A stretch of 64,000 nucleotides of DNA from Acidobacteriota bacterium (GTDB lineage Bacteria; Acidobacteriota; JAAYUB01), in NCBI GenBank assembly GCA_040768985.1, contig JAXGLX010000002.1, positions 4,485,871 through 4,549,870 on the forward strand, read 5' to 3'. The position numbers were made by a program, and so were the translations under genes. How positions within the stretch are numbered: the first letter of the stretch is position 1; the number at the start of each line of letters is the position of its first letter. Positions 1-25,600 of the stretch are shown piece after piece. The notes below the pieces were generated by a model. The model did no database searches and was not told the DNA's origin. It saw only the letters and a program-made list of their open reading frames with translations.

Positions 1-2346
1 GTCGTCGGGATTGATCTCGAGCATCCCTTCCGTCAGGAGCATCCGGGATCCCTCCACCCAGACGGACAGGGGGAACCCGCGATGAGAATGCTCCACAGCG
101 GAAACCGTCAACAGGTACGTTCCCCGTTCGGCAGTCACAGCCGCTATCCCCGCCTCACCGCTTCTGCCGGTGTCCGCCATCCGGCCGTGCCACCGGAACG
201 GGGCGGGATCACGACGGGCCAGGCCGGCCTCCCGGTGATACGCGCCGATGAACCGGCCCATTTCCGCGCGGATCTCTTCCACGTTCCTGAATTCAAAGCC
301 GACGGCGCCCATCCGACGGGCAATGCGGCAGAGAATCTCCCAATCCGGCAAAGCATTGCCGGGAGGTGGGACGGCCCGCCGGACCATCTGCACCCGGCCC
401 TCACCGTTGATGAAGGTTCCGTCGGATTCGGTGGCCGCCGCCGCCGGCAGCACCAGGTCTGCGGTGCAATAGGGCTCCGGCGGGTAGATGTTCTGGAAAA
501 TCAGGAAATCGGCCGGGACTTGCGGCGCGGGGGGCAGCTCGCCCAGCAGGTACAACACCCGGCTCCGCTGTCCGGCCCAGAGCCGCCAGGCGTTCCAACT
601 CCCGTCCGCGGGCGCCAGGGGCACCCCCCAGATCTGTTCCGCGAGCCGGCGTTGCGCGTCGTCGTCCAGCGGCACGCCGCCTGGGAGAACCTCCGGGTAG
701 GCGCCGGCCATCAGCGAACCGACCAGGTTGTTTTGCGCCGGCAGGGGCATGAACCGGGCTCCGGTGGCGTCGGCCAGCTCGGTCAGGATCGCGAGGATTT
801 CCGCCGCCCCGTCGCACTGCATGAACTCGGAGCCGACCAGGATCACGGTGCGTTTGGATTCCCGCAGCAGCCGGGCGGCCTCACCGAGGTCGCTGTCCCG
901 GCCGGCGGCGCTCGCCCCGGCCGGAGCCGCAGCCGCCGGCTGGACGCGGTCCAGCAGGCTGCGGAGCAGGCCGGCTTCGCCGCCCGACGGCGGTTGCAGC
1001 CAGATCTGGGCGAGCAGGCTGTAGCTGTGGCGATGCGGATTCACGGTGATGAGGCGGATCCCCTGCTTGAGCGCCCGCCGCAGGGCCACCCCGACCACCG
1101 AGCGTCCGAAGCGGGAATCCAGACCCACGGCCAGGATGACCTCGGCCGCGGACAGGGCCGACAGCGGCACGCTCCGGCCCAGGAGGCGGAGGTAGGGGTC
1201 GAACGCCGGCCCGTAGAAGATCCGGGCCGTGGTGTCCACCTGGTGGGAGCGCATGACCACCCGGGCGAACTTCTGGGCGACGTACAGGTCCTCGGTGCAG
1301 CAGTTGGTGGATGCCAGCAGGGCGAACTCCTCCGGCGGACAGGCGGCGAGCTTCTCGGCCATCAGCGCGGTGGCCTGGTCCCAGGAGATTTCCGTGGGGA
1401 TCGAGCCGTAGCGGGCATAGGGGTTCCGGAGCCGCCGGTAGCCGCTGACCAGCTCCGTGTTGCAGAAGCGCCCCTTGACGCAGAGCTGCCCCTGGTTCAC
1501 CACGGGATCGTCGGCGGGCAGGCTGCCGATGACCCGTTCGTCCTTCACCAGCAGCCGGAGCTGACAGCCCACGCCGCAGAACGAGCAGGTGGTGGTCTCC
1601 TCCCGGTCGGGCTTGCCCTCCCAGGCCCGGGCTTTCTCGCGCAGGGCGCCGGTCGGGCACACCGCCACGCAGGCGCCGCAGAACTCGCAGCCGCCCGCCA
1701 TGTGGGTGCGGTGGAAGGCCGGCCCGATGATGGTGTTGCGCCCGCGGTTCTTGTACGCCAGCACGTTGGCGGTCCGGACCTCCTGGCACATCCGGACACA
1801 CCGCCCGCAGAGGATGCACAGGTTGTAATCGCGGTCGTAGAAGGGATCCTCCGTCTCCACCCGGAGGTTGCGGTAGTAGATCGGGTGATCGATGCGGTCG
1901 ATGCCCATGGATTCCGCCACCGCCTGCAGCTCGCACAGCGTGTCCTTGGGGCAGTACCGGCAGCCCGTGGTGACCCCGGACTTGCGGATGGTGGGCATGA
2001 ACTCCTTGCACTCGGCCTTCTCGTCGCAGACCAGGCAGCTGGAGGTGTGCTCCGTCAGGAAGAGCTGCAGGATGTCCCGGCGCATGGCCTCGATCTGCGC
2101 GGTCCGGGTGCGCACGATCATCCCCTCTTCCACCGGGGTGGTGCAGGCGGTCGGAAAGGTGCGCACCCCTTCGACCTCGACGATGCACATGCGGCATCCG
2201 CCGTGCGCCGACAGGCCGTCGAGGTAGCACAGGGTGGGTATCTCGATGCCATGGGCGCGGGCCGCCTCCAGAATCGTGGCGCCCCGGGCGGCCGTGATCG
2301 TCCGATTGTCAATGCTCAACGTGATGGGAATCTGCTCGGTGCTCAC
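1..2346 (-). CDS. NuoG-like Fe-S / molybdopterin-oxidoreductase-family subunit, partial (C-terminus beyond window start); GTG start overlapping the NuoF-like stop
   Basis: Own reverse-complement translation of frame 0 runs open from 2346 to position 1: N-terminal 2Fe-2S motif (C-x10-C-x2-C), His-ligated cluster HTSSCLVCDEKAEC, two ferredoxin-type CxxCxxCxxxCP motifs, then MopB-type TTCSFCGVGCQL...C. Not in the ORF track because it has no stop in the window. Confidence 0.75.
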   Translation of the reverse strand, partial: MSTEQIPITLSIDNRTITAARGATILEAARAHGIEIPTLCYLDGLSAHGGCRMCIVEVEGVRTFPTACTTPVEEGMIVRTRTAQIEAMRRDILQLFLTEHTSSCLVCDEKAECKEFMPTIRKSGVTTGCRYCPKDTLCELQAVAESMGIDRIDHPIYYRNLRVETEDPFYDRDYNLCILCGRCVRMCQEVRTANVLAYKNRGRNTIIGPAFHRTHMAGGCEFCGACVAVCPTGALREKARAWEGKPDREETTTCSFCGVGCQLRLLVKDERVIGSLPADDPVVNQGQLCVKGRFCNTELVSGYRRLRNPYARYGSIPTEISWDQATALMAEKLAACPPEEFALLASTNCCTEDLYVAQKFARVVMRSHQVDTTARIFYGPAFDPYLRLLGRSVPLSALSAAEVILAVGLDSRFGRSVVGVALRRALKQGIRLITVNPHRHSYSLLAQIWLQPPSGGEAGLLRSLLDRVQPAAAAPAGASAAGRDSDLGEAARLLRESKRTVILVGSEFMQCDGAAEILAILTELADATGARFMPLPAQNNLVGSLMAGAYPEVLPGGVPLDDDAQRRLAEQIWGVPLAPADGSWNAWRLWAGQRSRVLYLLGELPPAPQVPADFLIFQNIYPPEPYCTADLVLPAAAATESDGTFINGEGRVQMVRRAVPPPGNALPDWEILCRIARRMGAVGFEFRNVEEIRAEMGRFIGAYHREAGLARRDPAPFRWHGRMADTGRSGEAGIAAVTAERGTYLLTVSAVEHSHRGFPLSVWVEGSRMLLTEGMLEINPDD

Positions 2347-4232
2347 TGTTCACTCCGCCTGGACTCGAAAATGACGGCGTTGCCCGCCAATTGGTCGTAT
2401 CGGCACACTTCGTAGCAGGCCTTGCATTTGATGCAAAGGGCCAGGTCGATCCGGTGCGCTTCGGACCGCGCCCCGGAGATGGCGTGGGTCGGGCACACCT
2501 CGACGCACCGCTGGCACCCGTTGCAGCGCGCAGGATCAATGCGGTACTCCACCAGTTCCTTGCAGACGGCGGCCGCACAGTGACGCTCTTTGGCGTGCTG
2601 GAGATACTCGGTGCGGAAGTGCCGCAAGGTGGTCAGGACCGGATTGGGCGCGGTCTGGCCCAGTCCGCACAGCGAAGCCCGTTTCACCGTCTCGGCCAGG
2701 TGCTGCAGTTTGGCCAGGTCCTCCGGTTGGCCGCGTCCGGCCACCAGGTCCTCCAGCAGACGGACCATGTGCCAGGTGCCCACCCGGCAGGGGGAGCATT
2801 TGCCGCACGATTCCGCCTGGGTGAAACGAAGGAAGTACAGGGCGAGGTCCACCGCGCAGGTGTCCTCGTCGACCACGATCATGCCGCCTGAGCCCATGAT
2901 GGACCCGGCTTCGGCCATGGCCTCGTAGGCCACCGGCAGGTCGAGAAACTCCTCCGACAGGCAGCCGCCTGAAGGCCCGCCGGTCTGGACCGCCTTGAAC
3001 CGCTTCCAGGATCCGCCCCCGATGTCGAAGACAATCTGGCGCAGCCGGATGCCCAGCGGCACCTCGATCAGGCCCGGCCGCCGGACCTTGCCTACCAGGG
3101 AAAAGGTCTTGGTGCCATAATTGCCTTCCACTCCGAACTGACGGTACCACGCCGCGCCGTTGCGAAGAATATGGGGCAGGGTGCCCAATGTTTCCACGTT
3201 GTTGATGATGGTGGGGTGGCCGTTGAGGCCGGCGATGGCCGGGAAGGGCGGGCGCGAGCGCGGCATGCCCCGGCGGCCTTCGCACGAGGCGATGAGCGCG
3301 GTCTCTTCACCGCACACGAATGCGCCGCCGCCCTCCTTGAGGGTGATGCCGAAGCTGAAATCTGTTCCCAGCACCCGCTCACCCAGCAATCCGTGAGTGG
3401 TCATCTGGGCGATGGCCTGGCGTAACCGGGCGATGGCCAGGTGGTAATCCGAGTTGATGTAGATGTAGCCGTGGCCGGCGCCGATGGCGTACGCCGCGAT
3501 GAGCAGGCCTTCCAGTACGGCATGGGGATCGCCTTCGATGAGCGCCCGGTTCATGAACGCACCCGGATCACCCTCGGAACAGTTGCAGATCACGTACTTG
3601 GTGGTTCCGGCGGCGCCGCGGCAGATCTGCCATTTCCGCCAGGTGGGGAAGCCGGCCCCGCCCCGGCCGCGCAGCCCCGCCTCCTTGACCATACCGATGA
3701 CATCCTCTGGCGTCATCCCGAGCGCCTCATTCAGTCCCGCATAACCGTCATTGGCCAGATAGTGCTCGATGTCCTCGGGGTCGATGAAGCCGCAGTTACG
3801 GAGCACCAGCCGGACCTGGTGACGCATCATCGGCGTGTCAAAAAAGCGCGGCAGCCCGGCAGTGAGCGGATCGCCGTTGGAGCCGAAATGAGCAAAGGCC
3901 AGGTCCGCTGACGGATCGCCGTGCAACAGCAACCGCTCCAGAATCCGTTTCACCCGGGACGGATCCACGTTGGCATACGTGATGCGGGGATGGTTCGGCA
4001 GCCGCACGTCCACGAGCGGCTCCAGGTAGCAGGGGCCGATGCAGCCCACGGGGACCACCCGAGCCTCCACCTGGAGCTCCAGGAGTGTCTGTCGGATGGC
4101 GTGCAGCACATTTCCGGCACCGGCGGCAAGTCCACAGGTGGCGGCACCGACGTAGATGACCGGGACCGGGCTCTCCTCAAGACGGGCCCATTGTTGCCTG
4201 GCGGCAGATTGGATGGTCGAGAAGTTACTCAC
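2343..4232 (-). CDS. NuoF-like NAD(H)-binding flavoprotein subunit (51-kDa-type; HndC/HoxF-like) with C-terminal 2x[4Fe-4S] ferredoxin domain
   Basis: Track ORF; GLRGRGGAGFP NADH/FMN motif, ESCGKCSPCR cluster motif, C-terminal CNGCQRCVEVCP and CIKCKACYEVC motifs. Confidence 0.9.
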   Translation of the reverse strand: MSNFSTIQSAARQQWARLEESPVPVIYVGAATCGLAAGAGNVLHAIRQTLLELQVEARVVPVGCIGPCYLEPLVDVRLPNHPRITYANVDPSRVKRILERLLLHGDPSADLAFAHFGSNGDPLTAGLPRFFDTPMMRHQVRLVLRNCGFIDPEDIEHYLANDGYAGLNEALGMTPEDVIGMVKEAGLRGRGGAGFPTWRKWQICRGAAGTTKYVICNCSEGDPGAFMNRALIEGDPHAVLEGLLIAAYAIGAGHGYIYINSDYHLAIARLRQAIAQMTTHGLLGERVLGTDFSFGITLKEGGGAFVCGEETALIASCEGRRGMPRSRPPFPAIAGLNGHPTIINNVETLGTLPHILRNGAAWYRQFGVEGNYGTKTFSLVGKVRRPGLIEVPLGIRLRQIVFDIGGGSWKRFKAVQTGGPSGGCLSEEFLDLPVAYEAMAEAGSIMGSGGMIVVDEDTCAVDLALYFLRFTQAESCGKCSPCRVGTWHMVRLLEDLVAGRGQPEDLAKLQHLAETVKRASLCGLGQTAPNPVLTTLRHFRTEYLQHAKERHCAAAVCKELVEYRIDPARCNGCQRCVEVCPTHAISGARSEAHRIDLALCIKCKACYEVCRYDQLAGNAVIFESRRSEQ

Positions 4233-4713
4233 GGTTTTGCAAGATCTCCTTCAGCTGGGTGACCATTGTCCGGGCGTGGATCTTCTCGTTGACTTGGACC
4301 ACCGGGGCCAGCGCACAGCACCCCAGGCAGTTGACTCGCTGAAAATCGAATGCTTTGTCTTTGGTGGACTGTCCCACGGTGATGCCGAGTTGCCAACCGA
4401 GGGTGTCGCTCAGAAATCCGCCACCGTGGACGTGGCAGGCGGTACCCATGCACACCTTGATGGACTTCCGGCCAGGCTCGTCGAAGCGGAACTTTGAAAA
4501 AAATGAGGCCACCCCGAAGATCTGGTTTTCGGACAGGCGCAGAAACTGCGAGATCCGCCGCACCGATTCCTCGGAAATGTAGCCGAACGTTTCCTGCACC
4601 CGGACCAGAATGGAAATCAGCTCCCCCTCCTGGCCCTTGAACTGCTGGAAGAGGTCATGGTAATCCCGCGGGTCGGTGCCGGCGCCGGCCTCCGGGGTGT
4701 CGAGTGGATTCAT
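4225..4713 (-). CDS. NuoE-like 2Fe-2S thioredoxin-fold subunit (24-kDa-type; HndA/HoxE-like)
   Basis: Track ORF 162 aa; Cys motifs CMGTACHV and CLGCCALAP; 8-nt overlap with the NuoF-like start suggests translational coupling. Confidence 0.85.
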   Translation of the reverse strand: MNPLDTPEAGAGTDPRDYHDLFQQFKGQEGELISILVRVQETFGYISEESVRRISQFLRLSENQIFGVASFFSKFRFDEPGRKSIKVCMGTACHVHGGGFLSDTLGWQLGITVGQSTKDKAFDFQRVNCLGCCALAPVVQVNEKIHARTMVTQLKEILQNRE

Positions 4714-5988
4714 TCAGTCATCCTCGCTTTGTTGGACTCGGTTCAGGTGGATACAGTCGGTGAGCTTCACTTCGCCCCGCACAAAATCCTCCGCAAAGGC
4801 CATGCAGGTGGGCGATCCGCAACATCCGCAATCGATTTGTTTCAGTTTTTGATAGACGCGCTCCCGCTCTTTCATCCGCTTGATGGACGTCTCCAGGTCC
4901 GTGTCGAAGTAGCGGATCGGACGCGGCATGATCGGATACTCGATGGTGAAATATCCTGCCTGCATCTTCTGCTCGATGTCGTGGGTGTCGATCTCGATCC
5001 GCTCCTGATACTTTTCACCCTGTCGCAGGGCATTGACTCGGGCGATGTACGGGTTTTCCACGTTGAAGGTGCCGCCGACGCAGCCCAGCATGTGGGCCGA
5101 CGCCTCGATGAAGGTGACATTGCGCAAGCGGGAGTTCTCGATGTCGTCCAAAATTTGCATGACGTGGTCCAGACCCGCAATCACCAGCCAGTTCTCCCGC
5201 TCCGCCGCCCGGGTCAAGCTGCCCGACGTGACCCACTCCGAGTTGAACGAGAAATTCTCCGGCACCTGCTTCACGTCGAATTCCTTGTGGATGGCCATCA
5301 CGTGAGGCATGATGATGGAGTAGATCCCGCGCACCGACACCACGCCGTCGAACCAGGATTTATTCTTTTCAGCCGGCTGCTGAACGGAGGCGATCTTCGC
5401 CGGACAGGTGGCCACATAAAACACGCCGATCTCCTCGGCGGTGAGGCCCAACTGTTCGGGCAGGTCCTTTTTGATTTCCCGGGCCGTGATTTCACGCGGC
5501 ACTTCCATGGGGACGATCAGCTCCACCAGGTCGGGAAATTTCACCTGGATGAGCCGAACCACGCATGGGCAATAGGACGCGATCAGTGGCAGGCGGCCGC
5601 GGTATTCCTTGAGGTACAGTTCCAGCGCCTTGGCCAGGGCCACCGTGGAGGTATGCACGTCGATCACGCTGTCGAAACCGATTTCCTTTAGCGCCAGGTG
5701 AATCACGTAGGGGTGGATGTGGGCGTCGAACTGGGCGTACAAGACGGGGGACGGCACGATGACCTTGTGCCGGAAGTGGGAGAGTCCATTGACCATGTCA
5801 CTGTCGACAACAATGGCGTTTTCCGGACAGATGCCGATGCAGTTGCCGCAGTCGACGCAGAATTCGTCCGAGATGACCGCTTTGCCGTTGCGCACCCGGA
5901 TGGCCTGAGTGGGGCAGATGCGCATGCAGGCCATGTGTCCCCGGCATTTCGCCGGGAGGACTCTGTGGGCATGGAAATAGCGGGTCAT
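4714..5988 (-). CDS. Sensory-type (HydS-like) [FeFe]-hydrogenase-like protein: N-terminal 2x[4Fe-4S] ferredoxin, divergent H-cluster domain, C-terminal Cx2Cx4Cx16C motif
   Basis: Track ORF 424 aa; CxxCxxCxxxCP-type motifs at N-terminus; H-cluster-like motifs SYCPCV, ATCPAK, SAHMLGCVGG; C-terminal DCGCCGSPTCMAFAEDFVRGEVKLTDC. Confidence 0.7.
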   Translation of the reverse strand: MTRYFHAHRVLPAKCRGHMACMRICPTQAIRVRNGKAVISDEFCVDCGNCIGICPENAIVVDSDMVNGLSHFRHKVIVPSPVLYAQFDAHIHPYVIHLALKEIGFDSVIDVHTSTVALAKALELYLKEYRGRLPLIASYCPCVVRLIQVKFPDLVELIVPMEVPREITAREIKKDLPEQLGLTAEEIGVFYVATCPAKIASVQQPAEKNKSWFDGVVSVRGIYSIIMPHVMAIHKEFDVKQVPENFSFNSEWVTSGSLTRAAERENWLVIAGLDHVMQILDDIENSRLRNVTFIEASAHMLGCVGGTFNVENPYIARVNALRQGEKYQERIEIDTHDIEQKMQAGYFTIEYPIMPRPIRYFDTDLETSIKRMKERERVYQKLKQIDCGCCGSPTCMAFAEDFVRGEVKLTDCIHLNRVQQSEDD

Positions 5989-6007
5989 GGCAGTGGCTCT
6001 CTGCGCG

Positions 6008-6820
6008 TCAGGCTGTCGGTGGGCGAATGGAGAATTTCATCCGCAACCGGGTTCCCCGGCCGACCTCACTTTGGAGGTCCAACTCATCCGAATTTCTTTT
6101 GATGTTCGGCAAACCCATGCCCGAGCCGAAACCCATGGCCCGTTGTTCTTCGGTGGCCGTGGTGTACCCCTCCTGCATCGCCTCGGTCACGTCCGGAATG
6201 CCCTTGCCCTCGTCGTCGAGGATCACCTCGATGGCGTTGGGGGTGACCGCCAGGCTCACCTGGGCCCGCTTGGCGTGCATGATCACATTCATCTCACCCT
6301 CGTAGGTGGAGATGGCCACGCGCCGGACGATCGTGGGATCGACCCCGATCTTCTTCAGGATGGATTTCACTTCGGTGGATACCAGACCGGCCCGCGAGAA
6401 ATCGCTCCCTTCGATCAGGAACTGGTTATTCAACAGGATGGACTCGGACGGTGGCGGGATTTCCATGGGCAAACCCGCCAGGCCGGACTCATGGGTCAGG
6501 GTGTAAATCCGGACGCAGCTTTCGTACATGTCCAACTGGGTGGACATCAACACGATGTTGTGTTCCCGGGCGAATCGCTCGGCGCCGTCCTTGGTCTTTT
6601 TGCCACGGATCAGAACAACCCCGCGGAATTCGGCCATGTGAGCGGAGATGACCGACTGCTGGGAGGCGAGACCGGTCAACAGGATGGAGTCCGGTTTTCC
6701 GAACGCGAGCACGTCGCTCATCAGGTCCGAGGCGTAGATTTCCGTGATGTCGGTGGAGAGGAGATCCTCGCGGGCCAGCACGGCGGCTTCCAGCGCGAGT
6801 CTGATGGCATCAATCTTCAT
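6008..6820 (-). CDS. DRTGG-domain protein fused to HATPase_c-type anti-sigma regulatory factor-like Ser/Thr kinase domain
   Basis: Track ORF 270 aa; C-terminal ATPase G-box-like GFGSGMGLPNIKR; N-terminal half resembles DRTGG domain. Confidence 0.65.
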   Translation of the reverse strand: MKIDAIRLALEAAVLAREDLLSTDITEIYASDLMSDVLAFGKPDSILLTGLASQQSVISAHMAEFRGVVLIRGKKTKDGAERFAREHNIVLMSTQLDMYESCVRIYTLTHESGLAGLPMEIPPPSESILLNNQFLIEGSDFSRAGLVSTEVKSILKKIGVDPTIVRRVAISTYEGEMNVIMHAKRAQVSLAVTPNAIEVILDDEGKGIPDVTEAMQEGYTTATEEQRAMGFGSGMGLPNIKRNSDELDLQSEVGRGTRLRMKFSIRPPTA

Positions 6821-6904
6821 TCACACGCTCAGGGGACGGCGGTTCATTCAGCGTCTGGGCCGGGCCGATCCGCGAACGAGCAGGTTGTCGAACAGATACT
6901 GACG

Positions 6905-7240
6905 TTACTTGGCGACGAGTCCGAGCGAGTATAGTTTCCCGACCAGGTCGAAAGTCATCGTGTCAGTAGCGAGGAGGGCAATGTTATGACGGTTGGCCAG
7001 TTCGATGGTTTCCGGTGGGACACTCTTGCCGTTGGGGATGATGACGGCCGCAACATCCACCAGGTTGGCTGCCGGGACGATGCTCTTGTGGGTTTGCACG
7101 GTCACCCAGAGATTGCCGGATTTTGCGCCCGCCATGACATCACTCAGCATGTCGGAGATGAACACGCCGCTGATCTCCCGGTGCTCAAACTGGCTCAACG
7201 GCTTCAGCCCGAGGATGTCGATCACTTCTTTTGTCGTCAT
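6905..7240 (-). CDS. DRTGG-domain protein (small regulatory partner)
   Basis: Track ORF 111 aa; similar in sequence to the N-terminal half of the 6008-6820 product (ISDMLSDVMAG vs ASDLMSDVLAFG). Confidence 0.6.
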   Translation of the reverse strand: MTTKEVIDILGLKPLSQFEHREISGVFISDMLSDVMAGAKSGNLWVTVQTHKSIVPAANLVDVAAVIIPNGKSVPPETIELANRHNIALLATDTMTFDLVGKLYSLGLVAK

Positions 7241-7283
7241 AGTTCAAGCTCCGTGCAAAGATGGATGTTGGTCCCGGTTGCGA

Positions 7284-7826
7284 TTAAAACAACGGCTTTC
7301 GTTCCACCAGCGGCTTCTGCGAGAGCATGCCGACATCATGGATGAACTCACCCCGGCACAGGGCGATCTTCGGGATCCGGTCGAAGGAAATGAATCGGAC
7401 GGTGGACCGCGAGGTGTCGCGGCGCTGGTTGAAATACGCGCCGAGTATGTCCAGCCGCCTCTTGCTGATCGGGGTCCGCAGCCCGTCCGGCAGGTTGGAA
7501 AAGGCGACCAGGATCCAGGTCCGCTTTTTCTCCGCCCGCTTGCGGATTTTCTCCACAGCGCAATCGGGCAGGCAGGAGGTGCAGTACATCAGTCCCAGCA
7601 GGTCTTGGAAACTTTCACGCCGCTGGCAGAGCGCGCACTCGAGGTTGAAGCGGATGGTCTGGGCGTTCTCGACGATGCTCCAGGTGCAGTCTCCTTCCTT
7701 GTACTGATCCCACGTGTCCTGGGTGGAAAAGTAGGTCCGGAGTTCCTGGCAATGGGAGCAACGCTCGAAGACCGAGAAACCGAACTGGACGTCCACCATT
7801 TTCCACGCATGCTGGCAATGTGACAT
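7284..7826 (-). CDS. Cys-rich zinc-ribbon-like hypothetical protein (start moved to internal Met MSHCQ)
   Basis: Track ORF 7284-7877; CxxC pairs (CSHCQ, CALCQ, CTSC) plus further Cys/His; first gene of the minus-strand cluster. Confidence 0.45.
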   Translation of the reverse strand: MSHCQHAWKMVDVQFGFSVFERCSHCQELRTYFSTQDTWDQYKEGDCTWSIVENAQTIRFNLECALCQRRESFQDLLGLMYCTSCLPDCAVEKIRKRAEKKRTWILVAFSNLPDGLRTPISKRRLDILGAYFNQRRDTSRSTVRFISFDRIPKIALCRGEFIHDVGMLSQKPLVERKPLF

Positions 7827-8289
7827 CAGTGCACACCTGATAACAAAATAACAAGCCAGGCCTGCCGCCTGATCCAATGTGCGTACAAGAATGACCGGAA
7901 CAGTCTGAGTCAGGTTAATTCAGCAATACCGCGATGTCAAGGGATTGTTGCCGGAATCCAGGTTCGTCGGCACGCCGGGCGATGAAACAGAACGGTGCCT
8001 CCGACCCGAATCGCCGCGCTCGGATGGCCGGAATCAGCGGAGTTGCGGCGTTAATGAACGAGTCACAGCCGGAGCATGGTCGGTTGATGATCAATCCCAT
8101 GCTGAAATCCTGTTCGACCCGCCGCGTGCCGTGGGTCGCCGGGAGGGACGCCTGAAGGTTGTGCGTGGCCCAGGTGCGCACGGTACGGGGGGGGCGACGG
8201 GCCCATCCATCACCACGCCGACTGTTTGGTTCCGGCTCCGCCGGGTTGGGATTACGAATCAGGATGACGCGCTCGAACCATCAACGACC

Positions 8290-8650
8290 AACTATCCGCG
8301 ATACTGTGAACCTGTGAATCCGTGAACATTCCAACGTTCGAACATTCAAACGGCTCCATTACGAACACGATCACGATTACGGATTACGAGCTGGAACCAT
8401 CAACTCTCAATGAGCGGAAACGAGCCTCGAGCCTCGAGTCTCTAGCCTCGATTACGATCACGATTACGAATTACGATTACGAATCTCGATTACGATTACG
8501 AATCACGAGCACGAGCCATCAACTCTCAATGAGCGGAAACGAGCCTCTAGCCTCGAGCCTCTAGCCTCGATTACGATCACGATTACGAATCTCGATTACG
8601 ATTACGAATCACGAGCACGAGCCATCAACGATCAACCATCAACGATCAAC
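8290..8650. repeat. Minisatellite array: two tandem ~105-120-bp units (approx 8397-8515 and 8516-8620) built from GATTACGA / CACGAGCACGAG / CCATCAAC / GAGCCTCTAGCCTCGAG submotifs, plus flanking partial units
   Basis: Direct reading: unit ccatcaactctcaatgagcggaaacgagcctc[g/t]agcctcgag...cgattacgatcacgattacgaat...cacgagcacgag occurs twice in tandem; second unit lacks one 13-nt tacgattacgaat subunit. Confidence 0.8.
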
Positions 8651-17747: not shown

Positions 17748-19109
17748 ATGCGGGCGTTGCTGACTGTCGGGTTGATCGGCATCTTGCTGGCCCTGGCGGC
17801 CGCCCAGGGGGATCCGCGGGACCTGCCGCGGGTGCAGAGCGCCAACATCGTCTACCTGGGCTCCTTCGCGCTGCCGGAGGGCGACTTCGGCGGCTCGCGG
17901 TTCGGCTACGGCGGCAAGGGACTCTGCTTCTACCGGGAGCCGTCCGGCACGCCCTCGTTGTTCCTGCAGGGGCATGACTGGTACCCCGGGTTCGTGGCCC
18001 AGGTGTCCGTGCCGGACCTGGGCGGAACGGCGACCGTGCTCCAGGAGTTCCGCGACGTCACCGACGGCGCGCTGGCGACGCTGGCCACGTCGGATTCGTT
18101 CGTTTACGGCATGATGGTGTACGACGGGCGGCTCATCGTGGGCGCCTCGTGCTACTACGACGGGGACGCCAGCCAGGTGAACTCCCACGGCGTCTCGACC
18201 TTGAACCTGGCCGCCCCCGACGACTTCCAGGGATTTTACCCGATGGCCGCCGAGGCCAATCCGCGCTCCCTGGGGGGCTACATGACGGTGATCCCCGCCG
18301 AATGGCAGGCGCTGCTGGGCGGACCGGCGCTGACGGGCAAGGGATGCCTGTCCATCATCTCCAACAACAGCGCCGGACCGTGCGCCACGGTGTTCGACCC
18401 CGACGACGTGGGCGCCGCCAGCCCGATCCCCGGCTTCACCCTGATCTTCTACCCGCTGGCGCACCCGCTGGCGCCGGAGACCACCACCAACGAGCTGTTC
18501 AACCTGGCCACCCACATGGCGGGCATCGCCTTCCCGCCGGGGAGCCGGAGCGTGCTCTTCTTCGGGCGGCAGGGGACCGGGACCTACTGCTACGGCGTCG
18601 GCGGCGGCGTGGAGTGCGACGACCCGTGCGACGACAGCCACGGCACCCACGCCTGGCCGTACCGCCATCAGGTGTGGGCGTACGACGCCGCCGAGCTGCT
18701 CCAGGTGCGGAGCGGCGCGAAGGCCTGCTGGGAGATGCGTCCCTACGCGGTCTGGGCGCTCGAGGGGATGACCGGCGGCACCTGCGCCGACATGGAGGGC
18801 GCCGCGTACGATCCGGCGACGGGCCGCCTCTACGTCACCGAAAGCTACGCCGAGGAGCCCCGCGTGCACGTCTACCGGATCATGGTTCCGTCGGCGGTGA
18901 CGCGGGACGGCGACATCAACGGCGACGGCGGGTGCGACGTGCGCGACGCCGTGGTGCTGGCGGTGACGCTGGCGGGCGGCCTCGCCTCCGGCACGCCCCC
19001 CTGCGCGCGCCCGCTGGCGTGCGATTTCACCGGCGACGGGTCGCTGGACGCCGAGGACCTGCTGATCCTGGGCGCCTACTTCGCCGGCAGCCGGACCGCG
19101 CTTCCCTGA
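17748..19109 (+). CDS. Secreted hypothetical protein with C-terminal dockerin-like duplicated Ca-binding segment
   Basis: Track ORF 17745-19109; signal-peptide-like N-terminus; DINGDGGCDVRD and DFTGDGSLDAED loops each followed by a hydrophobic helix. Confidence 0.7.
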   Translation: MRALLTVGLIGILLALAAAQGDPRDLPRVQSANIVYLGSFALPEGDFGGSRFGYGGKGLCFYREPSGTPSLFLQGHDWYPGFVAQVSVPDLGGTATVLQEFRDVTDGALATLATSDSFVYGMMVYDGRLIVGASCYYDGDASQVNSHGVSTLNLAAPDDFQGFYPMAAEANPRSLGGYMTVIPAEWQALLGGPALTGKGCLSIISNNSAGPCATVFDPDDVGAASPIPGFTLIFYPLAHPLAPETTTNELFNLATHMAGIAFPPGSRSVLFFGRQGTGTYCYGVGGGVECDDPCDDSHGTHAWPYRHQVWAYDAAELLQVRSGAKACWEMRPYAVWALEGMTGGTCADMEGAAYDPATGRLYVTESYAEEPRVHVYRIMVPSAVTRDGDINGDGGCDVRDAVVLAVTLAGGLASGTPPCARPLACDFTGDGSLDAEDLLILGAYFAGSRTALP

Positions 19110-19450: not shown

Positions 19451-19562
19451 GAGATAATCGGTGCGGGGCATCCTGTGTTCAATCTGCCGACTCCATCCGG
19501 TTGCGGAGGCTCTCGAAGCCCTCGCGCAGGGACTCCCGGCACTTCCGGCGTCTGCTAGCTTC

Positions 19563-19592
19563 TTGATTGAGTGTAGGTATTATGTGTAATAT
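19563..19592 (+). promoter_or_regulatory. Candidate promoter TTGATT-N18-TAATAT in an AT-rich patch upstream of the giant gene
   Basis: Hexamers read directly; locally low GC in an otherwise GC-rich window. Confidence 0.3.
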
Positions 19593-19664
19593 ATCCAACA
19601 TTCCCACAATCAGGCGGGACGCAGTTTGCGGGTGATGTTTTCCGGCCGGAAGGGTAGGTGAAAC

Positions 19665-22600
19665 ATGTTCAGATCGTCCCTGACACGGCACGGCAGCTTC
19701 TTCACCGGTCAAGAGCGGACGGATCGCCGGCAGCGTCCGGCCGGTCGCGTCGGACGCTGCGGGTTCGCGGTCGGGATCGTATTCATCGCCCTGGCCCGGC
19801 TGGGCGCCCAGGACCTGGAGATCGCCGGCGACCCATCGATCAACCGGTGCGAGGCCAAGGTCTACACCCTCACCCTGCAAAACGATTCCGGAAATCCGTT
19901 GACCCGCCTGGTGGCGAGTGCCGATCTCTCGCTGTTGACGGGATTTTCGTACGTGCCCGGCAGCACCTCGATTTGGGTCAACGCCGAGCCGGTGTTCTGC
20001 ACCGCCGATCCTGCGGCCGGCGGCGGCTCCTTGATCTGGGACCTGGATGCGCTTTGCGGCCCGACGGTGGGCCTGGACGATGGCGACACGCTGAGTGTCA
20101 CCTTTCAGCTTCAAACGGCGTGCGCCGCCGTCTCCGGTTCCCTGGGCAGCCGGTTTAACTATGACATTGCGGGGACGCCGTCCGAGATCTTAGCGGCCCG
20201 CGCCATCCAGGTGTTGCCGGGCCGGCTGAGCATCCGGAAAACCCCCAGCGTCATCTCCCAGGAGGTGGGTCAAAACGTCACCTGGACCATCGCCGTGGAG
20301 AACACCGGCCTGGGAACGGTCCGGAACGTGGTGGTGACCGACGGGTTGGGGGCGGGCCTCGAGTACGTGGCGTCGTCGCCGGCCGGCCTCAACGCCGGGC
20401 CGACGACCCGCTGGGATGCGGCCCAGGTGCCGGGCCTGGCGCTGATGGTTCCCGGCGACATCATCACCCTCGACGTCACGGTGAAAGTCATCGCCTGCAC
20501 CGGCCTGGACAATTCCGCCGACGCGCGGTGGGGCTGCAACCCGGCGACCGACTGTTTCGACACCGCCGTCGACGGCGGGACGGCCACCGCGGTGGTGCAG
20601 CGGATCCCCCGTTCTCCCAGCCTGAGCTTGACGCCCCCCGACATCGGTTTCTCATACTGCGAGGACAGCGGCCCGCAGGCCTTGAGTGTGGAGAATATCG
20701 GTGACGGGACGGCCCGAGCGGTCGAGCTGTGGATCGACTTCAGCCCGCTGGCCGTCGCCGCGTCGTCGGTCCCCTACAACGCCGCCGGTTACTTTGAGCT
20801 GCCCGACATCGCCGCTGGCGGCCGTGTCGACGTGACGTTCACCCTGGCGTACGCCGGCTGGTGCGGCGGAGCCGACCTGGCGGGAACGCTGATCTGGCAA
20901 CCGCGCTACGCCGACGACTGCGGCGGCGCCTATTTCGCCCCGGTGGAATACAGCGAGATCCTCCCGGCAACCGGGACGCCCGGCCTTTCGGTCGACGTCA
21001 CCGGCGCCCCCGACGTCATCTCCATCGGGGACGCGGTCACGTACGCCGTCACATCCAACTATTCGGGGACCTTGAACTGCGGCGCGGGGAGCGTCGGGGC
21101 CGTCACCGTCACCGACACGGTCCCCGCGGGCTTCACCGTCGTGGACGCCGGCGGCGGGACCTGGGTTCCCGGGGCCGGCGGCACCGGCGGCGCGGTGACC
21201 TGGGCCTATCTCCCTCCCGCCACCCTCGCCACGACGCTGACCCTCCAAGCGCCCCTCCGGGACGAGTGCGAAACCTGGTGCTTCACCACGTTCGCCAACT
21301 CCGTCGAAGCCTCCGTCACCGACTGCTGCGGCTGTGAGCACACGGCGGCGGCGTCGCAGTCTTCGGCGATCGTGTGCGAGGAACTGGTCATGGTCACCCG
21401 GACCGCCACGCCGGCCACCGCGGAGCGCTGCTCGAATATCCTGTACACCAACATGTATGCATTCGACGGCTCGGCCGGCGCCCTCCTCAACGAGTTGGTG
21501 TTCACCGAACGGGCCGACCATCAGCAGCAGTACGTCCCCGGATCGCTGACCGTCACTTTCGACGGCGGTGACGTCACCGGATGCGTGCTCGTCACCGACA
21601 CGACCCCGGGCGGGACGCTGACCCTCGACTTCTCCGGTTGCGCCGCCGCCGCGGTGGGCGCGAAAGCGCTGGTCATCACCTACCAGCTGACCATCACCGA
21701 GGCCACCGCCGCCGCCTGCGGGGGAACGGAATTCTACGCCTGGTCCGCCCTGCAGCAGGGGAGCACCGGATCCCAGTGCCTTGTGGACGGGACCATCTAC
21801 GAGGCCGTCGCCGTCGCCGTCGAGGCGCCGGCCATGTCTCTCCGGTTGTCGGGCCTGTCGACGGTCGTGGACCGGTGCCGGACGGAGACGGTGACCCTCA
21901 CCCTGGCCCAAACGTCCATGGCCGCCAATCCCCGGGACGTCCGGCTCGTGCTGTCCGGCCTGAACTATTACGTGGTCAATCCAAGCGCAGCCATTTGCGC
22001 CGGCGACGTTTCGCCCATCTCCTGCACCCCCGCCCTGGTGGGGGACGACTTCGTCTGGTATTTCGGCGACGGATTCACCGGTGCCGGGCAGAGTTGCGTC
22101 CTCCAGTTCCAGGTGCAGAAGCGCTGTTCCGGCGGGGGGAGCCTGGAGGCCACGGCCTTCTTCGACGACCGCTGCCACGACGACGGCGTTTATGACGATA
22201 CCTGCTCCGTGAGTGGCGGCCTGACCCCCGCCGCCATCCGCGGAGGCGACCTGCTGGTGGAAGTGAGTCCGGAGGTCTACCAGGCCGCCTCCTCTTCGGT
22301 GGAGTGGAAGGTTTTCGTCACCAACCGGGGCGCGGGCACCGCCGCCAACGTGTGGGTGGATCACTTCCTGGGCGCCGGGCTCGATTTCAGTTCCGCTGTC
22401 GTCGACGACATGACCGGCGTCACCGTCACCGCCGACATGGACCACACCGGGGGCGCCGTCAACGGCGCCACCGTCGCCATCGACGCCCTGGCGCCCGGCG
22501 AGCGGCGGGAAATTTCCTTCCACGCGGTCCTGATCGACACCTTTAACCTGACCCTCGACGTGGCCGCCGCCTGGGGCTGCGTCGGCGTCGACTGCCAGTC

Positions 22601-25600
22601 GGCCGTGCGGGACAGTTCCACGGTGGAGACCCTCACGCCCATGCTGGTGGACACCGCCGTCGTGACCACTCCCGTGGATGCCTGCGGCGGCTCCACGGGC
22701 ACGCTCACGCTCCGCAACGCCGGACAGACCGCCTGCTACAACGGCCAGGTCACGGAGACGTTGCCGGCCGGCCTGCGGTACGTCTCCGGCACGACCCGCT
22801 GGCGGGTGAACGGCGGAGCATGGAACGGGCCCGACGCCGCCTACGACCCCAATCCCACCGTCTCTCCCCTGCGCTGGACCGCCACCGGGATCCCGGGATT
22901 GGCGGTTCTGAACCCGGGGGACACCCTGGATGTGGACTACGACTTGTCCGCGGACTGTCCCTTCACCGGCGGGCCGGTCACGGTCACCGTGTCGTACGAG
23001 GACCCCGGCGGGCAGGTCATCAACAATCCGGCGTCCACCTTCTCCGTGGCGTTCCGGGCGCCCGACCTCCGGGTGACGAAAACCCGGGCCGACCAACCGG
23101 TAAGCTGCGGGGAACTCATCGAGTGGACCATCGCGGTGGAGAACCAGAGCGGCTACACGCTTCCCATCGTCTGGGTCGAGGACACCCTGGATGCCGCCTT
23201 TACCTTCAACTCCTCGGTGGGAGACCCGCCCTACACGGCCGACGACGGCACCTTTGACGGCGTGAATCGGGTCAGCTGGGAACTGAGCTATCTTGGTCCC
23301 GGAGAAACCGCGATTCTGACCTTGCGGGCCTCATTGGATTCATCACCCTGCAGCCCGGACCTGGACAACACGGTCCGGGCCTGGTGGGGTTGCGGAACCG
23401 CCGACGGCTCGTCTGCAACCCAGCCAGGCGTGGATCCTCCCGATAACGGCCTTTGTCTGAACCCGACGCCGGTGAGCTACGTACGCACCGAGACCCGGCA
23501 GCCGAGCTTGACCGATTTCGCCGTCGGCCTCTCCCCCGCATCCATCGATGCCTGCAACGGCGGCACCGAAGTGACCTTCGCGTGCGCCAACACCGGCACC
23601 ACGGATGCTTTCCTCCTCGATGTCGAGATCTCCCTGCCCGCCGGGCTGACGTACAATCCCGGGACCGCCCGACTGTATGTCGGAGCCGACGGCACGGGCG
23701 CCACCACACCCATCGCCGATCCCGCCGTTTCGGGGAATCGGCTGATCTTTTTCGACACGGCCGACAAGGTCAACAACCTGGTCGATGTGCTGCAGGCCGC
23801 CGGTGGCAGCGACACGCTGGTGCTGAAATTCGAATTGCGATCGGATTGCTTTTTCGCGGCCGACCTGGGATACGCCGTGCGCTTCTACGACTGCTGCGGC
23901 GACACCCAGTACCAGCTCAGCGGCAGCCAGACAGTGCCGGCGCTCAACCCCGAGCTGACCGTCACCCAGGCGCCGGCATCCGCGCAGATCGCCTGCGGGG
24001 GACAGCAGGCCTGGACCATCACCGTCACCAACACGGGGGCGGGTAACGCCCAGGTGGTCCGAATCGAGGACACGCCCGGCGCCTGGATTACCGTGGACCC
24101 GGGCGCCTCCACCGCCGGGCTGACGGACCTGGGCTCCGGAAAGTGGGGCTGGGAGATCAACGATCTCGCCTCCGGCGGCGCGCAGGTCTTCACCCTGGCG
24201 GGAACCCTGAACCCGGCCGGGAACGGCTGCGATGCGTCCCGGCGCGAAAACAACGTCCGGGCTGTCTGGGGGTGTGGCACCGCCGGCGATGCCACCGACG
24301 GCGATCCCCTCACCCAAAGTTACGACTGCACCTCGGCGGTCTGGGCGACCGCCCCGACCGCCATTCTCCGGCTGCCCAACCTGGCCGTTGGCGCCGTCGC
24401 GCCTGCGGCCGCCTGCGCCGCCGACGGATCCTTCACCGGCAGCATCGCCGTCTCGATCGTCAACGCCGGCGACGGGAGCACCGGCGGCGGCTTCCTGATC
24501 CAGGCCGCCGACGGGCAGGGCTGGACCGGCACCTTCGCTTGCGCCAACATCCTCGCCGCCGGAGAAACTCTGAACCTCGACATCCCGGGCTCCTCCTGGT
24601 CGCCGGCGTGGGTGCCCGCCTGCACCCCCTGCGCCGCGGCCTCGCCCTACAGCTTCACCGTCGTGCTCGACCCGACGGGCGCCGTCTGCGAGTGCGACGA
24701 GAGCGACAATGCCCTGGCCGGGATCCTCTTCGACGTGCACCGCCCCGAACTGGCGGTGACGGACATCGATTTTGCGCTCGTCGCCTGTTCCGGCGACCAG
24801 GTCGCCGGCGCCATCCGCGTCCGCGTGGACAACACCGGGTGCGCAGACGCGGCCGGGGTCGTGGTTCGACTGACAGCCGACTGCGGGCTCACCTTCGGCG
24901 ACCAGATCACCAATGTGCCGGCGGGATCCCACACCCTGGCCGAGTTCCCGATCGTTGACGGTGCTTGGAACGACTGCGCCGACGAAACCTGCGCCTTCAC
25001 GGTCGCGGTGGATCCGGCGGGGCTGATCTGCGAGTGCGTGAGCGGCGGCGACACCCTCGGACCCGTGACCCACACGCTGTCCCTCCCGGACCTTGAGGTG
25101 ACCGACATCGAGCTGGGCGCCCTGAGTTGCGACAGCGGCGTCGTGTCCGGTTCGGCGTCCGTCACCGTCCGCAACGCGGGGAGCGGCGCGGCGGGCGCCT
25201 TCAGCGTCAGCCTGTCCACCCCGGCCGGCCTGGCGTTCACCGACCAGCCCGTCGCCGCGCTGGCTGCGGGCGAGAGCATCACCCTCGTATTCCCCGCTGC
25301 GGGGAGCCTGCCCGACTGCTGCCTCTGCGCGGCCGATTTCACCGCCGCGGCCGACGCCGCCCAGGCTGTCTGCGAGTGCCGGGGGGACAACAACGTCCGC
25401 ACCGTCCGGCCCGCGGCTGCGGACAAGATCTACTGGACGGACGAGAGTGCCGGCGCCATCCAGCGCGCCGAGGCCGACGGCGCCTCCGTGGAAGCGGTGC
25501 TCGCCGGGCTGGCCGGACCCCGCGCCGTGACCCTCGACGGGACCGGCGGCAAGATGTACTGGCTCGAGCCGGCCGGCGGCGTTCTCCGCCGGTCGAACCT

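Follow-up and report, generated by a model that had tools for sequence, protein, structure and literature searches.

The window analysed here is a 64,000-nucleotide stretch of DNA from an Acidobacteriota bacterium (contig JAXGLX010000002.1), which contains, on its reverse strand, an open reading frame (ORF) for a 424-residue [FeFe]-hydrogenase-like protein resembling the M2e or group D hydrogenases. The gene is the fourth in a compact nine-gene operon, in which gaps of 43, 84 and 19 nucleotides separate the first four genes, and the subsequent genes have abutting or overlapping starts (Table 1). Pfam assigns to the protein an N-terminal region with Fer4 motifs, representing a 2×[4Fe-4S] ferredoxin region (residues 12–60), an Fe_hyd_lg_C domain (residues 76–306; 83.6 bits against a cut-off of 22.1, E-value 2.3e-23) and, near the C-terminus, the "putative Fe-S cluster" domain FeS, PF04060 (residues 384–413; 44.7 bits against a cut-off of 23, E-value 1e-11).

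Table 1. Positions in the window of the 424-residue protein, its cluster-binding motifs and the other genes of the operon.
Feature	Position	Strand	Basis or remarks
[FeFe]-hydrogenase-like protein, M2e/group-D-like, 424 residues (gene 4)	4714–5988	−	Pfam, AlphaFold2, Foldseek, TamHydS alignment
First ferredoxin motif CRGHMACMRICP, CxxHxxCxxxC	5911–5946	−	second Cys replaced by His18, codon CAC at 5935–5937
Second ferredoxin motif CVDCGNCIGICP, canonical	5824–5859	−	all four Cys invariant
L1 equivalent ASYCPCV, residues 137–143	5560–5580	−	Tyr139 at the proton-relay Cys position (CpI C299); Cys140 equivalent to ligand C300
L2 equivalent ATCPAKIAS, residues 193–201	5386–5412	−	Cys195 equivalent to C355, Lys198 to K358; Ser at the consensus-Glu position
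L3 equivalent EASAHMLGCVGG, residues 295–306	5071–5106	−	His299 (CAC, 5092–5094) at C499; Cys303 equivalent to bridging C503
C-terminal [4Fe-4S] motif CGCCGSPTCMAFAEDFVRGEVKLTDC, residues 387–412	4753–4830	−	C387-x2-C390-x4-C395-x16-C412; Pfam FeS
Gene 1, Cys-rich protein, 180 residues as called in relatives	7284–7826 (mechanical ORF to 7877)	−	motifs CSHC, CALC, CTSCLPDC
Gene 2, DRTGG-like protein, 111 residues	6905–7240	−	Pfam DRTGG 24.0 bits, E-value 3.7e-5, just below the 25.2 cut-off
Gene 3, weak N-terminal DRTGG-like region and SpoIIAB/RsbW-like HATPase_c, 270 residues	6008–6820	−	19 nucleotides upstream of the 424-residue protein gene
Gene 5, NuoE/HydC-like [2Fe-2S] protein (BfuC)	4225–4713	−	Pfam 2Fe-2S_thioredx, E-value 2.5e-39
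Gene 6, NuoF/HydB-like flavoprotein (BfuB), 629 residues	2343–4232	−	C-terminal 2×[4Fe-4S] extension and ~150-residue N-terminal extension before the NuoF-like core
Gene 7, NuoG-like BfuA with molybdopterin-type domain	1–2346	−	begins with GTG at 2346, overlapping the stop codon of NuoF; truncated at the window edge (841 residues in locus L001)
Genes 8–9, NfnA-like and NfnB/GltD-like pair	past the window edge		loci L001 and L062–L064

In phmmer alignments against the sequences of the Protein Data Bank (PDB), the three H-cluster-like segments pair with the L1, L2 and L3 motifs of the hydrogenases CpI, TmHydA and HDCR HydA2: 'iasyCPcvv' with 'FTSCCPAWV', 'vatCpaK' with 'VMPCTSK', and 'EasahmlGCvGG' with 'EVMACNYGCVGG', respectively. 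Because of these alignments to solved hydrogenases the motifs can be considered positionally homologous, with Y139, C140, C195, K198, H299 and C303 corresponding to C299, C300, C355, K358, C499 and C503 of CpI. A first-pass annotation, made from the DNA letters, had quoted these divergent peptides together with a C-terminal Cx2Cx4Cx16C motif, and had named a lack of positional homology or a coincidental cysteine spacing as what would refute it. The peptides and the exact spacing are indeed present in this ORF, and although the motifs depart from the catalytic consensus they are located at L1–L3; the Pfam FeS match and the invariance of its cysteines show that the C-terminal motif is not a chance occurrence. 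An H-domain without the proton-relay cysteine (CpI Cys299) followed by Cx2Cx4Cx16C defines the "putative sensory" hydrogenases M2f (group C, with a PAS domain) and M2e (group D, without PAS), and the C-terminal motif is the one described for these proteins (PMC8163306). Two features go beyond what had been annotated, i.e., the change in L3 is a Cys-to-His exchange of a ligand of the [4Fe-4S] subcluster of the H cluster ([4Fe-4S]H), and the first ferredoxin motif reads CxxHxxCxxxC.

Conservation was assessed in the close clade of the protein (122 members) and in the wider M2e-like family (149 representatives). Fifteen cysteines are invariant in an alignment of 124 sequences with 26–83% identity to the query, including C15, C21, C25, C44, C47, C50 and C54 of the ferredoxin region, C140, C195 and C303 of the H-cluster-like site, and C387, C390, C395 and C412 of the C-terminal motif. 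Lys198 is invariant in 17 clade sequences and is lysine in 120 of 121; in the wider family Arg, Gln, Leu or His also occur at this position. At position 18 a histidine is present in 116 of the 130 sequences analysed and an arginine in six, most of the wider M2e-like representatives having cysteine, and His18 could belong to a His-ligated [4Fe-4S] or a [3Fe-4S] accessory cluster. The AlphaFold2 model calculated from the 124-sequence alignment has a pLDDT (predicted local distance difference test) score of 94.7 and a predicted template modelling (pTM) score of 0.93; it was used instead of a run with a 17-sequence alignment, which was unusable (pLDDT 57). The best 50 matches of the model in a Foldseek search of the PDB are all [FeFe]-hydrogenases, with TMq values of 0.57–0.67 at 16–21% identity. 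The protein shows the fold of the H-domain superfamily, with the bridging cysteine and the lysine that pairs with the distal CN ligand both in place, but does not have the full set of four cysteines for [4Fe-4S]H. We treat the site as H-cluster-like, with a putative 2Fe subsite.

The residues of the group A proton path are replaced in the alignment with CpI (C299 by Tyr139, E279 by Lys120 and S319 by Val159), and in the P231/S232 region of CpI only the proline is kept (Pro81), with Ser232 pairing with Val82 in the HMMER alignment. A group-D-specific proton path, involving E252 and D265, has been proposed for the M2e protein TamHydS (PMC10407848). None of the 122 clade members has Glu at the E252 equivalent, where Ile, Leu, Val or Met is found instead, or Asp at the D265 equivalent, which is Ser or Ala; among the 149 wider representatives the acidic residues are present in 101 and 91, respectively.

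To our knowledge, all characterised groups of [FeFe]-hydrogenases have been described with four cysteines on [4Fe-4S]H. Within the clade, the position equivalent to CpI Cys499 is His299 in 46 of 122 members and cysteine in the remaining 76, whereas in the wider representatives it is cysteine wherever the column is aligned, except for a glycine in the aberrant sequence P0262. The Cys299 form is paired with His139 in all 76 sequences, and the His299 form with Tyr or Phe139 in 42 of 46. Only four of the 424 columns discriminate between the two forms: 139 (Tyr/His), 144 (Val/Leu), 257 (Ser/Gly) and 299 (His/Cys). They are located in L1, in the loop with the TamHydS E252 equivalent and in L3, all of which line the H cluster. 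Because the difference is confined to these four H-cluster-lining columns, it suggests co-adaptation of the pocket rather than lineage drift, and points to the His299/Tyr139 and Cys299/His139 forms as alternative co-adapted versions of one predicted active-site pocket. Neighbour-joining bootstraps calculated without the discriminating sites recover the clade in 200 of 200 replicates, a monophyletic His form in none and a monophyletic Cys form in one, and position 299 requires a minimum of 2–6 state changes on the neighbour-joining trees; a single origin of His299 is not supported by these bootstraps. No column with a compensating cysteine in the His299 group was found across the alignment. Cys142, the second cysteine of SYCPCV, was considered as a substitute cluster ligand and rejected, because just 37% of the His299 sequences have it. 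As a strict rule, the presence of a histidine at position 139, 299 or both held in all 122 top matches and failed in 7 of 57 GTDB loci, and is no more than a tendency. Literature searches on natural His variants, and on Zixibacteria together with HydEFG, yielded nothing pertinent. In the algal hydrogenase CrHydA1, the residue at this position is C362, four residues before the bridging C366; replacement by Asp or Ser is tolerated, with the cluster and the 2Fe subsite kept and the catalytic bias shifted to H2 uptake (PMC5855289). According to a review, exchange of Cys for His at [4Fe-4S]H shifts the bias and raises the overpotential (PMC11376134, citing Rodriguez-Macia et al. 2019).

A word-indexed search returned 1751 relatives, the best 120 of which are ~422 residues long and 62–95% identical to the query, and an exhaustive HMMER search of 50%-identity representatives gave just one sequence above 50% identity, the others being at 28–41%. 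Members of the close clade are found in metagenome-assembled genomes (MAGs) of GTDB, from Acidobacteriota (96% identity), Zixibacteria, Ignavibacteria, Calditrichota, KSB1, Gemmatimonadota and Holophagae. The group D sequences published so far, 70 in number, include none from Acidobacteriota, Zixibacteria or the other phyla of the clade (PMC13104023, Table S6). In a midpoint-rooted neighbour-joining tree, which contains 142 M2e-like sequences only, the clade occupies a long branch among lineages without the E252 equivalent, away from the 'A|SED' group of TamHydS. As judged from these sequence comparisons, the 424-residue protein belongs to a separate, tightly conserved clade apart from TamHydS.

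The genes directly upstream encode a putative signalling cassette. The gene for the 111-residue DRTGG-like protein is in the same position in ~50 loci. In the 270-residue protein the N-terminal DRTGG region is matched below the Pfam cut-off (E-value 0.0036), while the ATPase domain matches Pfam HATPase_c_2 (E-value 4e-9), the NCBIfam model spIIAB (E-value 8e-15, below cut-off) and an anti-sigma F factor in the PDB (E-value 1.7e-7). The Cys-rich protein at the head of the operon, which has no match in Pfam, NCBIfam or the PDB sequences, is kept there in ~50 loci at 42–90% identity and may be an output or adaptor of the cassette. Ten long representatives of the wider M2e-like family include seven fusions to DRTGG (six C-terminal, one N-terminal) and one N-terminal fusion to HATPase_c, but none to PAS; these fusions provide independent evidence for a predicted signalling module. 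The order DRTGG, HATPase, M2e protein recurs in three further loci, L065–L067, and is followed in two of the three by DRTGG, PHP and HATPase genes. In L065 (9202–12955) the cassette is located beside HdrBC/Ldh-like genes; in L066, from a Clostridia MAG near TamHydS, it has no redox enzyme nearby; and in L067 (4737–11987) it lies between NuoE/F and HdrBC-like genes on one side and a NiFe hydrogenase (small and large subunits, HycI protease) on the other. The M2e-like gene of L067 is itself fused to DRTGG, and in both L065 and L067 PHP and a second HATPase_c gene follow. Because the L067 copy adjoins a NiFe hydrogenase, the cassette is not tied to [FeFe] enzymes, and the varied neighbours therefore fit a portable regulator and not a dedicated catalytic subunit. 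The M2e protein travels with a predicted kinase-like module, and not with one specific catalytic partner. M2e genes in Firmicutes adjoin complete HydABC enzymes that have an H cluster of their own (PMC8163306), and a histidine-kinase-like gene outside the holoenzyme has been noted in Bfu operons (PMC9304861). Nothing pertinent was found in the literature linking DRTGG with hydrogenases.

Downstream, the start codon of nuoE abuts the stop codon of the 424-residue protein gene (4714/4713). The best PDB matches of BfuB are B subunits of electron-bifurcating complexes (E-values of 1e-205 to 1e-175, over nearly the full length); its N-terminal extension has no Pfam match here and a weak 2Fe-2S_thioredx match in the L067 homologue. 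BfuA lacks the catalytic Cys-His pair, since 'DTCARVCHSPT' of FdsA pairs with 'DTTARIFYGPA', placing Phe-Tyr at the Mo-ligand Cys-His, and on this basis a formate dehydrogenase was rejected as the downstream enzyme. The order Cys-rich, DRTGG, HATPase, 424-residue protein, NuoE, NuoF, NuoG-like is complete in most of the ~55 close loci (at least 44% HydS identity, several phyla) with sufficiently long contigs, and the tail of the operon in relatives was read partly from P0282, which belongs to the same 90%-identity cluster as the window protein. The downstream enzyme is predicted to consist of a Bfu-type NuoE/F/G-like core with an NfnAB-like NADP(H) module and is not itself a hydrogenase.

The G+C content of the operon region is 0.59–0.60, or 0.59–0.65 when window 1–8000 is taken together, compared with 0.65–0.73 elsewhere in the window, and the operon proteins are 55–78% identical to counterparts from Zixibacteria and Ignavibacteria, which together suggest that the operon spread laterally as a unit. 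A low-complexity array of two 119-nucleotide tandem units and related 53-nucleotide copies, rich in GATTACGA-like words, occupies 8250–8650, in the stretch that separates the operon from the next gene. In L001, the Acidobacteriota locus at 96% identity, similar copies are located to either side of the operon (~7720–7860, 18410–18550 and 19500–19660), and the array is therefore considered a dispersed intergenic repeat.

With somewhat more belief than doubt, we regard the 424-residue protein as a sensor, the subunit through which a DRTGG/SpoIIAB-like kinase cassette would perceive its signal and control the downstream Bfu/Nfn-type NAD(P)H-ferredoxin enzyme. Its H-cluster-like site would have a [4Fe-4S] subcluster ligated by histidine and would lack an efficient proton path. 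The DRTGG/HATPase fusions and the operon context make such a sensing role, rather than that of an enzyme for bulk H2 turnover, most likely the best reading of the sequence. The first-pass annotation had likewise pointed to sensing and away from catalysis, and this is partly supported by the M2e architecture, the absent proton-relay cysteine and the kinase-like and DRTGG neighbours and fusions; the likeness to characterised sensory enzymes does not extend to the missing group-D proton path or to the histidine at a cluster-cysteine position. In the proposed mechanism, the H-cluster-like site would bind H2 or equilibrate with the cellular reductant pool, turning over slowly because both known proton pathways are absent. 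By analogy with Cys-to-His engineering in algal HydA1, ligation by histidine may raise the potential of [4Fe-4S]H and couple it to pH, and a site tuned in this way could be biased to H2 oxidation or binding. Both terminal cluster domains would pass on its redox or conformational state, with the DRTGG-like protein and the SpoIIAB-like ATPase/kinase as receivers, and the kinase in turn might control either the activity or the expression of the Bfu-type NuoE/F/G-like plus NfnAB-like enzyme.

Several observations weigh against this sensing assignment. The enzyme downstream is no hydrogenase, so why it should be controlled by H2 is not evident, and the abutment of the gene with nuoE would also fit a structural subunit. 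The DRTGG assignments in the window rest on sub-threshold Pfam scores. A motif scan of ORFs of at least 250–280 residues detected no radical-SAM, HydF-motif or TSCCP ORF in the window or within 10 kb on either side in 64 related loci; the same regions contain no canonical hydrogenase of the TSCCP-type HydA. The seven GTDB loci without histidine at either 139 or 299 do not fit the pattern of the pocket, and the phylogenies are neighbour-joining trees only, with short internal branches. Moreover, the sensory role of TamHydS is unproven, and its C-terminal cluster is unresponsive to H2 (PMC13104023).

A further-reaching proposal, which we put forward tentatively and with more doubt than belief, is that the clade, spanning Acidobacteriota, Zixibacteria and FCB-group phyla, holds a natural His-ligated H cluster and has repeatedly switched between His139/Cys299/Leu144/Gly257 and Tyr139/His299/Val144/Ser257, retuning the potential and the proton coupling of [4Fe-4S]H. 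Via the DRTGG/SpoIIAB-like cassette it would gate a bifurcating, non-hydrogenase NAD(P)H/ferredoxin enzyme, with H2 as a redox signal for electron-carrier balancing.

The abutting stop and start codons and the gene order, fixed across phyla, invite the interpretation that the protein is instead the H2-activating catalytic subunit of the downstream complex, passing electrons via its own clusters to the NuoG-like BfuA, in an uptake-biased NAD(P)+/ferredoxin-linked hydrogenase like the Bfu complexes with HytA. With its Mo-ligand Cys-His pair lost, BfuA itself offers no site for a substrate, BfuB belongs to the bifurcating type, and separate H-cluster subunits have precedents in Bfu enzymes (PMC9304861). 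Ligation by His or another non-Cys residue at this position biases to H2 oxidation (PMC5855289, PMC11376134), and a His or Tyr at the C299 position, being protonatable, could act as a relay. However, the NfnAB-like pair already provides a third-substrate module, both known proton pathways are absent, and activity is low in the characterised group D enzyme (PMC8163306, PMC10407848). The family, moreover, accompanies and fuses to DRTGG and HATPase, and occurs beside unrelated enzymes or none; in Firmicutes, M2e genes adjoin HydABC enzymes complete with an H cluster (PMC8163306). We consider a catalytic role unlikely. Much the same small probability is assigned to loss of the 2Fe subsite, which would leave an FeS-only redox sensor or electron-transfer protein, like the Narf/Nar1-like relatives, that signals to the kinase how reduced ferredoxin or NAD(P)H is, or simply wires clusters, and does not interact with H2. 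It would account for the strong departure from all three catalytic motifs, the missing cluster cysteine, the absence of both proton pathways and of maturase-like or canonical HydA ORFs in the window and around the 64 loci, the scores far under the curated NCBIfam hydrogenase cut-offs, and a regulated enzyme that handles NAD(P)H and ferredoxin but not H2. Against it stands the strict conservation of the residues that hold the 2Fe subsite, Cys303 and Lys198; the sites co-varying with His299 all line the 2Fe pocket, which is hard to explain if this pocket is empty. CrHydA1 variants at the same cysteine still take up the 2Fe subsite (PMC5855289), and maturase genes are usually unlinked to hydA, so that their local absence says little. 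Neutral degeneration of a decaying hydrogenase remnant, to which the divergent motifs and the low G+C content of the operon, suggesting a foreign origin, might be attributed, is hardly credible: the ORF is intact, the 120 closest relatives of nearly the same length span several phyla, the 15 remaining cluster cysteines are invariant, the operon context is conserved and the AlphaFold2 model is of high confidence. These conservation data exclude decay.

If the sensing assignment and the histidine ligation are correct, the exchange of Cys for His at exactly the position of His299, which is used in the laboratory to tune catalytic bias, would have a natural counterpart, and the conserved histidine with its co-varying pocket residues would be a test case made by evolution, from which enzymologists could learn how ligands of the first shell and residues of the second determine the potential, the proton coupling and the H2 affinity of the H cluster. 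The DRTGG/HATPase fusions, and the cassette beside several Bfu-type enzymes, suggest a concrete signalling partner for the "putative" sensory group D, and sensing of H2 or redox state may control bifurcating enzymes beyond hydrogenases in widespread uncultured anaerobes.

The remainder of the window contains several other features. An ATP-dependent phosphoenolpyruvate (PEP) carboxykinase gene adjoins the operon (9866–11509, reverse strand), together with a carboxyltransferase / cupin / oxaloacetate-decarboxylase-alpha-like / biotinyl-carrier cluster at ~11694–15700 (forward strand); such a combination is typically seen with fermentative metabolism of the propionate/succinate type. A Moco (molybdenum/tungsten cofactor) riboswitch (17410–17533, reverse strand; 63.8 bits against a gathering score of 36) is located directly upstream of a gene of the aldehyde dehydrogenase family with the Pfam domain Aldedh (~15796–17400, reverse strand), whose product does not look like a molybdoenzyme. 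A giant ORF of 3559 residues (19662–30338, forward strand), with seven matched stretches of Big_3_5 Ig-like repeats, DUF11 and CARDB, probably encodes a surface or adhesin-type protein.

Among the known systems, TamHydS from Thermoanaerobacter mathranii (M2e, group D) is the closest in architecture, with the same 2×[4Fe-4S] N-terminal domain, H-domain and C-terminal Cx2Cx4Cx16C motif and no PAS domain. Its sequence was rebuilt from the coding sequence in the supplement of PMC13104023, with 18 of 18 published landmark residues in agreement, and aligns end to end with the window protein at 34% identity over 414 columns. R30/R32, K35, E392/D393 and C379...C404 of TamHydS match R31/R33, K36, E400/D401 and C387...C412, and both proteins lack the proton-relay cysteine. 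Residues of the E282/R286 type are kept as E123/K127 in the CpI alignment (in a family-wide MAFFT alignment the segment is displaced by one column), the residue before the L2 cysteine carries a hydroxyl group (Thr194), and a histidine-kinase-like ATPase gene adjoins in both cases (PMC8163306, PMC13104023). TamHydS differs in having all four cysteines of [4Fe-4S]H (L3 EGLACIGGCIGG), alanine at the position of C299, a first ferredoxin motif with no Cys replaced and the proton path E252/S249/D265, where the window protein has His299, Tyr139, His18 and Leu258/Ser255/Ala271. In addition, the enzyme adjacent to the window protein is not a HydABC hydrogenase. TmHydS from Thermotoga maritima (M2f, group C) shares the N-terminal clusters, the H-domain without proton-relay cysteine and the C-terminal Cx2Cx4Cx16C motif (PMC8163306), but in group C a PAS domain following the C-terminal cluster is the defining feature; Pfam detects no PAS in the window protein or in any of the ten long relatives, and the window protein ends 12 residues past its last cysteine, so that membership of group C was rejected for want of this domain. 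Group A was likewise rejected: neither the TSCCP motif in L1 nor the E279/S319 pathway is found, and the score with the NCBIfam model for group A is 64.8, its cut-off being 406. All curated NCBIfam hydrogenase models score far under their cut-offs (e.g., 102.7 against 450). With group D the protein shares an architecture without PAS, the absent proton-relay cysteine and a neighbouring HATPase gene (19 nucleotides upstream here, and also in L065–L067). The sensory role of its characterised relatives is still termed "putative" (PMC8924675, PMC13104023).

The separate H-cluster subunits of Bfu-type enzymes, such as HytA of Clostridium autoethanogenum Fdh/Hyt, are likewise ~450-residue proteins with 2×[4Fe-4S] and an H-domain, encoded beside NuoE/F-like and BfuA-like genes (PMC9304861). 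That study describes HytA as carrying an H cluster and being active as an [FeFe]-hydrogenase, and mentions no DRTGG/HATPase cassette in connection with it; compared with this description, the catalytic motifs are missing from the window protein, and its C-terminal cluster is that of M2e. The regulatory [NiFe]-hydrogenase HoxBC with its kinase HoxJ (discussed in PMC8163306) is a functional analogy only, in that a slow, high-affinity hydrogenase is coupled to a kinase; its fold and cofactor are unrelated, and HoxJ is a PAS-containing histidine kinase, unlike the SpoIIAB-like ATPase and DRTGG proteins found here. The engineered CrHydA1 variants C362D/S and C362H affect the same ligand position as His299, and C362D/S forms the cluster and accepts the 2Fe subsite. 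A C362H variant with altered catalytic bias was reportedly made by Rodriguez-Macia et al. in 2019. These variants were engineered in a group A enzyme whose proton path is intact, whereas His299 is natural, occurs in a substantial part of the clade and co-varies with three other pocket residues. The window protein is best filed as a putative new variant within the group D (M2e) architecture, one that departs from it in the group-D proton path and in the four-cysteine ligation of [4Fe-4S]H.

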